Shown: in pieces, positions 12,001-18,000 of the stretch | How the letters are laid out: every line of letters begins with the position of its first letter | Numbering within the stretch: the stretch's first letter is position 1 | Assembly: GCF_003334385.1 (NCBI RefSeq) | Contig: NZ_QOWN01000030.1 | From: Escherichia coli | GTDB taxonomy: Bacteria > Pseudomonadota > Gammaproteobacteria > Enterobacterales > Enterobacteriaceae | Reading direction: 5' to 3' (one strand) | DNA: 57,197 bases | Made by a program: the position numbers

Positions 12001-15000
12001 TGATGTATTATGTAGTTCATCAACAGGGAGATGATTACTGGCGATGAGGAAAAGGTTTTTAGCGTCGATCAACTCAATGTATAAAGTGTTCACTGCATTA
12101 TTCTGGTTTATTCTTCCTGTAACGAAATAATCTGGCTTGAATCTGCTCAAGAATGAATTTTGAGATATGTGATCATTACAAAAATTTGTCGCAGCCATCG
12201 GATAGGTATAGAGACCATCGATTTTTTTATTTGAAATGATTTGCACTAATTCCTGATTAAGTATTAATGGATCCAGTGTATTCAATGAAGTAGTGAAAGG
12301 GAATATAGCTATGGAATAGTCTGAAGTATTATCTTCATTAATTTTAGTTTTGAAAACCTGCCCGCTGAAACGATAACCTTTCCGGTAGATTGTTTCTATG
12401 CAACGATCATAGCCAATTTTTTCAAAAATGCAGCGCAAAGAATAGATACATCTTGTCAGGGACTCGTCACTAACAATAATATTTTTCCATACTGATTCGA
12501 TGATCATATCTTTCAGTACAACATGACCAGCGGATTCAAGTAATACTATTAATACACCTAACTCTTTCTGTGGAATATAAACTTGCTCATTTCCTTGAGT
12601 AAGAATTCCATCTTCCGTGAGCGTTAATCCCTCAAGAAAATGATATGAGAATTTATTTTCTAAGTCCATTAGTTAACCTCTATGAAAAAATTGGTTTCTT
12701 GCATCCTGCTTAAGCAATAGAAATTATGGCTATTCATATTTATGTGTCATTAACGCTACAGGAAATTACATTTGACATATCTATGGTTGTGTTCACTAAT
12801 TTATCTTAGGAATTCAGTGATGTAATCTGAAATAGCCTTATTCAATTTTGATAAAGTAGATTGTTCTCTAACGCATTGAAAAATAATGATTTATAGTATG
12901 CTCTTAACTGTTTTAAGATGCTGATTTAAGAAAACATAAGAGGTGCTGGTTATAGTGGTTAACTGCACTATAACCAGCAAATTTAACCAAATGATTGTAA
13001 TGCTTAGCCATTATCTTCTGAATTATCGTTTAAGAGTTCAATATATGCCTGCGCTTTACTCTTAACACTATCATCCTCACAATTGTTAATAATGTGATAG
13101 AAACATTGCATTGCGTTATCGATATTTTTAGCCCCAATCTGACATTGACCCATACGATAAATAACTGAATAGTCATCATACGGGAAGTAATTGTAACTTA
13201 GTTTGTAAAGGTCATATGCTTGTTGATATTTCTTTTTGGGCTGACATACTGATGCAAAATCTTTTAGATACTCATGATTTTCGAACGCATAAATGCACAA
13301 GAATTTATAATAAATTTCTGCGTCCGTTATATTACCCTTTTCATGGTAGTCGAATGCATATGCATATATTCTATCAAGGATATCAGGAGTTAAACCATGT
13401 AGTAATGCCAGATTTTCTCCTTTCGATAATGCGTGTTTTAGTTGATTTGCCCATTCATCACTATTATTGAATATTTCAATTGTTTCTGTGCTCATAATAT
13501 TCCTCTGTGATGTGTCTCGTGATGCCAAATTATTATTGATTGACTCATTGATATTTTTATATTTATCTTTTTTAAATTATGAGTTTTAAGCTTGCATTGC
13601 TTATGGTATATTTTTCATTATTGGTAAAAGTACTGTTCACTACAAACTAATAACATCATTAGTTGTTTTACTAATATTCACCTTATTAGTTATCTTAATT
13701 ACGACATTACATAAATGCCTTAATGTGTATGACCTGGATTCATAGTATCAATTGCCATTTTTTCAATGAAAATTAAAAAGGGGGTTTTTGAGAAGGGTAG
13801 AATGTCGTTTGTTTTTTTCTTTATTATGTCTGGTGACGCGGGGGGATAGAACGTCTGTGCATATAGTAGTGAATTTATTCAGGTCTACATTATTCTCTAT
13901 TTTGGTCAGTTTTATGAGTTCATTTACAGCCATACTCATTAAATCATCTGTTATCGAAAATTTATATATGCTCATAGCAGATAATATTGCTTGCTGAATT
14001 ATCTCTTCAGAAATATCCGCTATCTTTATTGACAAATCATGTGTTAGATATTTTCCTCCAAGAGATTCTTGTTCAATATAATTTAAACCAGACCCCATTG
14101 TGATTTTAACTGGATTAACGGATTTCTCTTCATTTTTCTTATTTTTGTTCTCCTGATCAGGAACTAATGGTTGCAGTGGTAGGCTATTATTAATATTTCG
14201 TGGCTTCATTTTACATTTCTCTCATTTGATTAGAGCAAAATCCGAATTCGCAGCTTCTGATAATGTCAAATATCACCTTATGGAGACGTTACGTAGAATG
14301 ACTATATTTGTTATCGGCACATTAGGGGTATTAATTTTAGTATTGATGGAAGGTGATTATTGAACAGTAACATCGAGTCACGGTAAAAATGTGAGGTATA
14401 CAATGGACATTGAATTTTCGCAGATTCATGAAATGGTCTATATGCATGATATTGTAAATTCGGACTCGAAAAAGAAACCAAGGATTCCGTTAAAAAAATT
14501 CCTTAATGCTGAGAATGTTCTCACGCAAACAACATCATGGACATTAAATTCAAGATATGTGAATGTTAATTCTGTCAATAAAGTCAACGTAAAGAGTAAA
14601 GTTAAAAACAGTTATATCTCACGATCTGTCAATGATGAGTTTAGTTTAACAGATGATGAAATCAATTCTTTTAAAGAAACGTTAGTCCTTTCCTCTATTG
14701 ATTCACTGAGTAAACTGGTTCTTAATAATCCTCTTTCTGTATTGTTTACATCGACTGTACGAAGGAATAATAATCGAGCTAAGATGAATGTCGAGTTCGA
14801 CTCATGGATTTGCACCAGATGTTGTTGATACATGATATTTTACATTGCAAGGAGATGTCTAAAATGAAAGATGTTGATCAAATCTTTGATGCTTTAGACT
14901 GCCATATACTGCGAGAATATTTAATTTTATTGTTTTATGATTAACGAGGTTCCATCTTTTTGTTATCTATTTTAGTTTACCTTGCACAATGCATTATTGC

Positions 15001-18000
15001 TCTGTTACCAATGCTCAAAATAAAAGCATGCTTACCTTGCTTTAGTATATTATAGCTTACACTTTTTTCTGGAAAGACATAAAAATCAGGAATAAGTTGT
15101 GCAAGTCTATCATCATCAACTTGATCCATAATCTCAAACTTATTAACTTTCTTTGATGTTAAATGGGCTGTGTCATAGTTTTCAATCCATGTGTATTCAA
15201 TATTTCGCCGTATTGATTTACTTTCTCTGTTACCTTGTTGCCAGGTTCCACTCAACGCAACAGTTCCTGTTTTATTTTTTTTGTTATACATAAAGTCGAT
15301 GGTAAGATTTGCTCGTCCCTGGTCATTAAAAATTACCCAATTTGCAGTGCATGTTTCGTTATATATCATTTTTTCTGCAGTGTAAGAATAGACAGTGAAG
15401 AGAATAAACCCACTGATAAAAACTAAAATAAATAATAAGTTTTTTTTATAATCAATCACGATTAACCTCACGGTAAGACAGGGTTAAACAGTTTGCCACT
15501 TCATGTTGGTTATAGTTTTTATTGCATGCCATAACAATCATCCCCGGTGAGGATTTTGCAAGAGGGAAGTATAACCACGGATGTTTTTTACAGTTAATCC
15601 CCGAATCCAGTATCCGTGTTTTATATTTATCGAACTCTTTCAACCCATCAATTGTATCTTCTGTTACATTAAAATGGCAGCCATTAATTTCCGCAACAGT
15701 CTTGTAATCCTTGAAAAATGGCTTCGGTTGATTATTATTCCATAGCCAATATGCAGAATATGCGCCTATGACAAATGCGCTCAACATAATTAGATGACTT
15801 TTTATATGTTTGAGGATTTTGTTATTGAAATTCTTTGCGCCACCAATGCTCTCTTTGTATCCCGCATTAACTTTTATGGCAGGTGGGGCATTGTGTGTAT
15901 GTGCGTCTGTTGACGAGTTTATTACATGATTTTGTATGTTAATGTCATTATGGATCTTGAATCCTCTTCTCGGCACGGTTGCAATTAGCGAGTGGGTAGT
16001 ATCACCAACAGCGCGAAATCCGCGTCTGATAATGGATATGTTCTGATATAACGTGTTAGTAGGCACACGCATACCTTCTTCTTCCCAGACTCTGGTGAAA
16101 AAATCTTGTTGTGCAACCACATCAGGAAAAGCTTCAAGTAGAAGTGATAAACATCGACTGGCTGGCGTTGTCAGAACGACGTTAAGATCGGCGTTATGTA
16201 CCGATATTAATTTTCGGTGCTCAGGCCAGAACTCGATATTATCGTTAATAATCCAGTACATACGTCAATAAACACTAAATCAATCGAAATGGAGATCACA
16301 TAGTTTGCTAAGTATATTGGTATTTACGGCATAAATATATATTAATTTTATATTTATCATGATGATTGAAATGAGGCTTTAATGTTGCAACGTAAAACTT
16401 TACGTAAATTAACATGGTTAACATTTATGCCACTATTGTTTGTAAATTCATATTTCGTAATGCTTCTGAATTTTTCGTGTGATGGTTTTAAATACTATGG
16501 TGTTTACTCTTGAGGGGACGGCCTATTTATAAAATACGGACATTTCAATAAATGCCCGTATAAACAGAGTATGATTCTGGCTGGTCGTTGAGTATCAATG
16601 TTGGACCGAATGTGAACGAATAAATAATTCGTTTATTTTACCACCCATTCTCTTTTCGATTCGTTGCTTGTACGCGTAGATGCTACGGATATCCATATCC
16701 AGAACTTCAGCAATCTGATATGGATTATAACCAGAAACCATATACCCCATTATGGTGAATTCCATCTGAGTTAATGTGTTACCTCTGGTAAATGATAAAT
16801 AACGACCAATAAATAGTTGTCTGATCTTTTCATTGGCAACATCAAGACCATCATCATTATATATGACAGCAGATATTGCTGAGTTGTGTTTTCGCCAGTA
16901 ATTAGCTAACGATTGCATATTGCGGTCGCTGACTAAAACAATCCCCATGTCAGTACTTGCAAGATAGTCAATCCAGTCTTTTTCAAGGAATAGACGTAAA
17001 AAACTTACTGAAAAATCGACAAAAATATATCCGCTTAATCTCGCATTGTGGTTTTTTGTTAAGATACCTTCTACCACACCACGATTAAAATATGAACTTT
17101 CTTCGGGCCACATACAAAAACACGAGTTTGCGCAATACTGCAAACGCGGTGACTCTTCTGGCATTATTTGGCAATGCATTGAGCAACTATTGCATGTAAG
17201 ACTTTTATAACGACTACAAAGCCCCATGTTAAGAACCTCCCTATCCGTATATAATTGCATAATTTCATTGGTTATTGATGATGTCAATACACCATGATTT
17301 TGTAATTTTGCCGGGAAAAATTGCGATTAATCTGTATTTGCTATAATTCTGAGTAAGGCATTTAAAAATGCATTTCTCGTTATCAAATATGATTATGTTT
17401 CACTGATTTAATCTTGCATGGTTGAGAGCGGTCCAGATAACTATCTCATGGTATAAGAATATCTATATCGCAAATTGTTTTTGAATGACCAGAAGATATC
17501 TTGCGAATCTAAGTTATGCATCTTAAATAGTCTTATTTAAGATGTTCAGATCTCTTTGTGTGTTTAACTAACTGATAATACTAGGATATGACGAGAGAAG
17601 TGATAGGGTGGAATAATAACAAATGAATATTATGAAAAATGGAATGGTTCAAAATTGTAGCAATTTTGAACCATCCACAACTGATATTAGCTAAAGAACA
17701 TTACCGATACGCACAGGATACCCACGATCAGCGTAATCAGATTTCCGATGGAACGCCAGGGTTTAAGCGCCGGGATGAGATATGTTGACAGCGTAGGCAT
17801 GATGAAAAGTATCATGGCAATGAGCGGGCCGCTGATCGCGTAAATCATCGAAATCGCGTTCGGGTTAATGCAACAAACAATGAAGGTAATCAGCGATACC
17901 AACATAATTGATAGTGCGCGGTTAAATGCACGACTTTTCTTTACACCAACCTGCTGTAGTGTTGTTTTGACGACCTCTGTGGCACCTTCAATAACGCCAA

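Follow-up and report, generated by a model that had tools for sequence, protein, structure and literature searches.

Membrane-bound regulators of the ToxR/ToxS and VtrA/VtrC co-component class are the closest described systems to the proteins encoded by yqeI and yqeJ, two Escherichia coli genes that we analyzed within a 57,197-nt stretch of contig NZ_QOWN01000030.1 (assembly GCF_003334385.1; this whole stretch is referred to below as the window). Kinch et al. [quoted passage not shown] YqeI/YqeJ also appear among the co-component regulators in PMC10269533 and PMC13042144. In their introduction, Xue et al. (2020; PMC7552227) present YqeI as closely related to MarT, a ToxR-like regulator, and their study found 587 differentially expressed genes upon deletion of yqeI in an avian pathogenic strain, with flagella, serum resistance, adhesion, and colonization all reduced. 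The original prediction, made from the DNA sequence of the window, had called the pair largely uncharacterised; this was an overstatement, as the MarT relation, the co-component listing, complex formation, and the ΔyqeI phenotypes have been published and a Pfam family (PF27292) exists. Classification, fold, and complex formation being already in the literature, the present analysis is a confirmation and not a discovery.

Like Salmonella MarT/FidL, which comprises a co-transcribed ToxR-like transcription factor and a disulfide-containing lipocalin-like partner (PMC9214523), yqeI-yqeJ is very probably (probability of roughly 0.85) a translationally coupled cassette of the ToxR/ToxS-VtrA/VtrC class, belonging to its disulfide-containing FidL/YqeJ branch. 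Domain content, topology, fold, docking, and synteny, together with the published work (PMC9214523), lend strong support to the proposal that the two genes encode a membrane-bound regulator pair of the ToxR/ToxS type. The orthology with MarT/FidL is taken from PMC9214523 and not from direct sequence comparison; with regard to FidL, members of our YqeJ alignment weakly match the Pfam FidL_like model, whereas YqeJ itself falls below it.

The yqeI coding sequence (15452–16261, minus strand; 269 aa, ATG start, as both an open reading frame and a RefSeq annotation) encodes a membrane-tethered ToxR-like transcription factor. Residues 28–102 (15956–16180, minus strand) form a cytoplasmic winged helix-turn-helix matching Pfam PF00486 (Trans_reg_C; E = 4.1e-9), and the best PDB sequence match of the protein is the DNA-binding domain of Vibrio cholerae ToxR (8b4b; E = 1.6e-7); a PhoB-family regulator comes next, and CadC (5ju7; E = 0.017) after it. 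The only hydrophobic window, with a Lys-rich N-terminal flank, marks a single transmembrane segment at approximately residues 155–175 (15737–15799, minus strand); one such segment is present in each of YqeI and YqeJ, with positive-inside topology. The remaining 94 residues (176–269; 15455–15736, minus strand) are predicted to fold into a small ToxR/VtrA-type alpha/beta domain in the periplasm and include Cys195, Cys224, Cys246, and Cys258. The Trans_reg_C domain, the ToxR match, hydrophobicity, and cysteine count thus agree on the ToxR/CadC layout (OmpR-type winged helix-turn-helix, single transmembrane segment, cysteine-bearing periplasmic domain) first proposed for YqeI. CadC, a one-component acid and lysine sensor, shares with YqeI a membrane-tethered ToxR-type winged helix, as reflected in the weak sequence matches, and has an N-terminal periplasmic subdomain related to the VtrA-like fold (PMC9214523); unlike YqeI, it has a much larger periplasmic domain and no lipocalin-like partner gene, and works with LysP (PMC10269533).

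The neighboring gene, yqeJ (14977–15459, minus strand; 160 aa, GTG start in RefSeq), encodes a ToxS/VtrC-like bitopic partner. As originally described, this protein has one N-terminal transmembrane helix, at residues 7–27 (15379–15441, minus strand), which is strongly hydrophobic (Kyte-Doolittle value of 2.26), directly follows the sequence MIDYKK, and corresponds to a helix at residues 2–30 in the AlphaFold2 model; approximately 130 residues are periplasmic. The Pfam family YqeJ_C (PF27292) is a precomputed match for YqeJ and its relatives, while NCBIfam and an older Pfam release that predates PF27292 contained no family matching YqeJ. The AlphaFold2 model, computed from a 67-sequence alignment (predicted local distance difference test [pLDDT] of 94.3; predicted template modeling score [pTM] of 0.79), comprises the transmembrane helix, eight beta-strands, and a short helix. 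When this model was searched with Foldseek against 350,542 PDB chains, the top matches were Vibrio parahaemolyticus ToxS, V. cholerae ToxS (from a ToxR/ToxS heterodimer entry), and VtrC, with a probability of 1.0 and target-normalized template modeling scores of 0.62–0.68; classical lipocalins ranked lower. The periplasmic domain of YqeJ (residues 35–160; 14980–15357, minus strand) is thus predicted to be a VtrC/ToxS-like eight-stranded lipocalin-like barrel, with Cys37 in the first strand (residues 35–45) and Cys158 in the last (residues 153–159).

The two periplasmic domains were also predicted to dock with confidence. A fused construct consisting of YqeI(176–269), a 40-aa Gly/Ser linker, and YqeJ(27–160), modeled with an alignment of 12 paired rows and 28 YqeJ-only rows, gave a pLDDT of 84 and a pTM of 0.78; disorder was confined to the linker (38 residues), and the five models agreed (pLDDT of 82–84). 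Undocked domains would be expected to give a pTM of approximately 0.5 or less, and because the larger domain makes up half of the chain, a pTM of 0.78 requires confident relative placement of the two domains. In this model the YqeI domain has the order beta-beta-alpha-beta-beta-beta, which is the core given for VtrA and ToxR in PMC9214523. Unlike Vibrio ToxR and VtrA, in which a C-terminal helix is part of the periplasmic domain (PMC9214523), the YqeI model has no helix after the last strand. VtrA also lacks conserved periplasmic disulfides (PMC9214523), while YqeI has four invariant cysteines, a feature that likewise enters the comparison with Vibrio ToxR/ToxS.

The pairing of the two genes is strictly conserved across homologues, and the cassette is inherited as a unit. 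An exhaustive HMMER scan identified 98 YqeJ relatives at E ≤ 1e-3, and genomic location was checked for 11 YqeJ homologues, listed at 24–43% identity. In all 11, a Trans_reg_C gene (257–303 aa, one transmembrane segment; one copy truncated at a contig end) lies directly upstream on the same strand; the two genes overlap by 4–11 nt in nine cassettes and are separated by a 5-nt gap in the other two. Ten of the partner genes have a complete N-terminus; the YqeI winged helix shares 40–70% identity with that of nine of them and 28% with that of the tenth, at locus L019. Four cysteines with conserved spacing are invariant in the periplasmic tails of the 12 regulators (YqeI and its 11 counterparts); for YqeJ, all 67 aligned sequences have Cys37, and at least 90% of them have Cys158. 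Divergence is faster in the two periplasmic domains (30–31% mean pairwise identity) than in the DNA-binding domain (47%), and the periplasmic domains diverge together (r = 0.74; Mantel test, 0/5000; partial r = 0.47 given the DNA-binding domain); this co-divergence is supportive evidence only, because shared ancestry accounts for much of the correlation. A profile search with the YqeI periplasmic-domain alignment returned mostly E. coli fragments and added no depth to the paired alignment. Two long multi-stretch matches, P0095 and P0123, were considered as YqeJ arrays and rejected as tandem-repeat artefacts.

Several points weigh against placing yqeI-yqeJ in this class. Sequence and profile searches against PDB sequences found no similarity of the YqeJ and YqeI periplasmic domains to ToxS, VtrC, ToxR, or VtrA, nor to any other solved structure, so the link to ToxS/VtrC is testable by fold only, and homology to these proteins' periplasmic domains rests on fold, architecture, and gene order; the bile-salt receptor VtrA/VtrC of V. 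parahaemolyticus, for example, shares only 6–9% identity with YqeI/YqeJ and no profile-level similarity. The Foldseek E-values for YqeJ were only approximately 1e-3, at 7–13% identity. Docking of the two domains is deduced from the pTM alone and not from predicted aligned errors or coordinates, and tethering by a covalent linker can make AlphaFold more prone to pack domains against each other. The transmembrane segment of YqeI is only moderately hydrophobic (Kyte-Doolittle value of 1.35, as compared to 1.75–2.9 for the equivalent segment in the 11 partner proteins). Kinch et al. report dimeric complexes of the two periplasmic domains upon co-expression, a result whose data are in their supplement (PMC9214523). 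In addition, yqeIJ lies within a chromosomal hairpin that is silenced by H-NS in K-12 and may therefore be rarely expressed, and yqeJ carries a premature stop in at least one strain; both are taken up below.

In the mechanism that we propose, YqeI would sit in the inner membrane, with its cytoplasmic ToxR-type winged helix binding DNA and its periplasmic beta-beta-alpha-beta-beta-beta domain probably stabilized by two disulfides. YqeJ would be anchored through its N-terminal helix, and its eight-stranded lipocalin-like barrel may be stapled by a Cys37–Cys158 disulfide. The two periplasmic domains would form an obligate heterodimer, in which the C-terminal edge strand of YqeI may complement an open YqeJ barrel, by analogy with VtrA/VtrC and ToxR/ToxS. 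By the same analogy, a small hydrophobic ligand from the gut, such as a bile salt or a lipid, might bind at the YqeI/YqeJ barrel and switch the activity or stability of YqeI. As an alternative, the cassette may be a genuine ToxRS-type system in which YqeJ serves mainly as a stabilizer or anti-proteolysis chaperone, as ToxS does for ToxR and TcpH for TcpP, with the input arriving through YqeI cysteine redox or regulated proteolysis. This is possible, and it draws on the four invariant periplasmic cysteines of YqeI and the two in YqeJ, on partners of the class that inhibit proteolysis of the regulator or stimulate heterodimer formation (PMC10269533), and on the remark by Kinch et al. that a connection with lipid binding is “less clear” outside the bile-sensing co-component systems (PMC9214523). 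The YqeJ barrel is, however, closest to VtrC and ToxS, partners with documented bile-salt binding, and the roles of stabilizer and receptor are compatible with each other.

The junction of the two genes points to translational coupling. The original prediction had yqeJ overlap yqeI by 20 nt; the overlap itself stands, but the figure holds for the longest open reading frame only (14977–15471, 164 aa, starting at an upstream GTG at 15471). The second in-frame GTG, at 15459, is likely the better start, which gives an overlap of 8 nt (GTGATTGA; 15452–15459, minus strand) in which the yqeJ GTG lies within the last codons and stop of yqeI. This start is preferred because a putative Shine-Dalgarno sequence, GAGG (15466–15469, minus strand), can be read 6 nt upstream of it, because it is the RefSeq start, and because the 8-nt geometry is common to four homologous cassettes (loci L002, L008, L010, and L013, with ATG or GTG as the start codon). 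Vibrio toxRS differs in being grouped as a non-overlapping pair (PMC9214523). Kinch et al. also count YqeI/YqeJ among the exceptions without overlap (PMC9214523), a small discrepancy with the 8 nt that the two genes share when the RefSeq start is used.

[quoted passage not shown] Positions 1 to approximately 18,900 are low-GC island DNA (31–39%, rising to up to 43% in the final kilobase), and core genome with approximately 50% GC follows beyond approximately 18.9 kb. The minus-strand genes are, in order, ygeH (HilA-like), ygeG, ygeF, yqeJ, yqeI, yqeH, and yqeG, with yqeK convergent on the plus strand between ygeF and yqeJ. The pair had been placed at the island border; it is indeed near the border, but not exactly at it, as it lies approximately 2.6 kb inside, with yqeH and yqeG separating it from the core genome.

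This location raises the question of whether YqeI/YqeJ act as a periplasm-sensing input atop the ETT2 cascade, directly activating ygeH and/or the epr/epa/eiv operons, which we consider unlikely. The pair does lie within the low-GC island, approximately 2.8 kb from ygeH; VtrA/VtrC, which switches on T3SS2 (type III secretion system 2) via VtrB, provides a precedent (PMC9214523); and reviews count YqeI among the ETT2 regulators. Against this, the main text of the ΔyqeI RNA-seq study names no ETT2 gene, and flagellar and type 1 fimbrial genes dominate there (PMC7552227). Moreover, the pair is kept in K-12-like genomes from which the type III secretion system has been deleted, and none of the 11 related cassettes adjoins such a system. 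A ToxR-box-like repeat (TNAAA-N5-TNAAA) was found four times in the window, as compared to 5.1 expected, and in neither the ygeH nor the yqeI promoter region. MarT/FidL of Salmonella activates an adjacent autotransporter gene, misL (PMC9214523), which also argues against an ETT2 input; the genes beside yqeIJ (yqeK, ygeF, ygeG, yqeH, and yqeG), unlike misL, are not annotated as autotransporters.

Adhesin-type genes are neighbors of seven of the 11 related cassettes. These include chaperone-usher fimbriae (loci L008 and L009, 1–3800; L010, 1–1843), autotransporters (L012, 2248–3537; L016, 2311–6486), an invasin/intimin (L015, 158–3052), and a two-partner-secretion hemagglutinin (L013, 1–3606); the remaining four cassettes (L002, L005, L017, and L018) are flanked instead by regulators, EAL-domain genes, or genes of other kinds. 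Because of this family context, surface/adhesion and motility genes are the more likely targets of YqeI, rather than the type III secretion system. Homologues of YqeH with the Pfam domain EcpR_N also adjoin distant cassettes (L017, 1106–1747, blastp E = 6e-18; L018, 5614–6216, E = 8e-10; L002, 5528–6079, E = 8e-5), suggesting that the conserved unit may consist of three genes; unrelated GerE-type regulators adjoin the cassettes at L005, L010, and L015. We therefore raise, tentatively, the possibility of a three-gene module with a YqeH-like regulator, whose ancestral job may have been to switch neighboring adhesin loci in response to a gut signal and which may have been captured by ETT2 in E. 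coli, acting there on motility and adhesion and not on type III secretion. The recurrent YqeH-like regulator and the adhesin-rich context are the only points here that Kinch et al. (PMC9214523) do not mention.

Another explanation is that of a cassette in decay: silenced by H-NS and left over from a degraded island, it would have no present function in the majority of E. coli. In K-12, the segment from yqeG to ygeI folds into a strong, H-NS-dependent hairpin of the chromosome; it is silenced and has been used as a model silenced fragment (PMC12460168), and the yqeH-yqeI intergenic region falls within this H-NS-bound hairpin (PMC12460168). ETT2 is widely degraded, and individual strains show damage at the pair itself: yqeJ of strain ECONIH1 (locus L021, 1778–2260) carries a premature stop at codon 141 (Q141*), as a result of which RefSeq calls a shorter hypothetical protein, and strain H7 has an IS1 insertion in the yqeI-yqeK stretch. 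Two fusion proteins seem to have arisen through in-frame deletions as ETT2 decayed in particular strains: P0003 (200 aa), in which YqeJ residues 1–140 continue into the C-terminal portion of a lytic transglycosylase, and P0147 (174 aa), in which the first ~98 residues of YqeH are joined to YqeI from residue ~190. We nevertheless regard loss of function in most E. coli as improbable. The locus is present at ≥80% coverage in 3,603 of 5,426 complete E. coli genomes (yqeI and yqeJ are annotated by RefSeq in 3,737 of the 5,426), all six cysteines are retained, as is the translational coupling, and a complemented ΔyqeI mutant shows phenotypes (PMC7552227). Both genes are also under purifying selection, with ratios of nonsynonymous to synonymous substitution rates (dN/dS) of 0.08–0.10 for yqeJ and 0.24–0.30 for yqeI between E. 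coli alleles at dS of 0.07–0.13.

Upstream of the pair on the same strand lies yqeH (16595–17227, minus strand), encoding an EcpR/MatA-like LuxR-type regulator, and beyond it yqeG (17687–18916, minus strand). The AT-rich, 333-bp yqeH-yqeI intergenic region (16262–16594, minus strand) presumably contains the yqeIJ promoter. Between yqeH and yqeI, and between yqeI and yqeJ, no terminator-like site was found; promoter-like matches around the pair (16, as compared to 18.2 in shuffled controls) and terminator-like matches (4, as compared to 1.9 ± 1.3) did not exceed the controls and are thus uninformative on operon structure. Downstream of the pair are yqeK (14391–14828, plus strand), ygeF (13763–14209, minus strand), and ygeG (13004–13528, minus strand). 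In the window ygeF is an intact 148-aa open reading frame; in the K-12-like strain PS200 (locus L001, 11021–11510) it is annotated as a frameshifted pseudogene. Another RefSeq annotation is a “hypothetical protein” of 26 aa (WP_000655820.1 in L001), corresponding to window positions ~14864–14944 (plus strand); it is convergent with yqeJ and falls in the gap that separates the 3′ end of this gene from yqeK. By tblastn, none of the 11 related cassette loci contained a counterpart of yqeK, ygeF, ygeG, or yqeG, suggesting that the adjacency of these four genes to yqeIJ is specific to ETT2.

YqeI/YqeJ is the sole cassette of the ToxRS/VtrAC class listed for E. coli K-12 by Kinch et al. (PMC9214523), which makes it a tractable model for the fast-evolving periplasmic sensors of this class.

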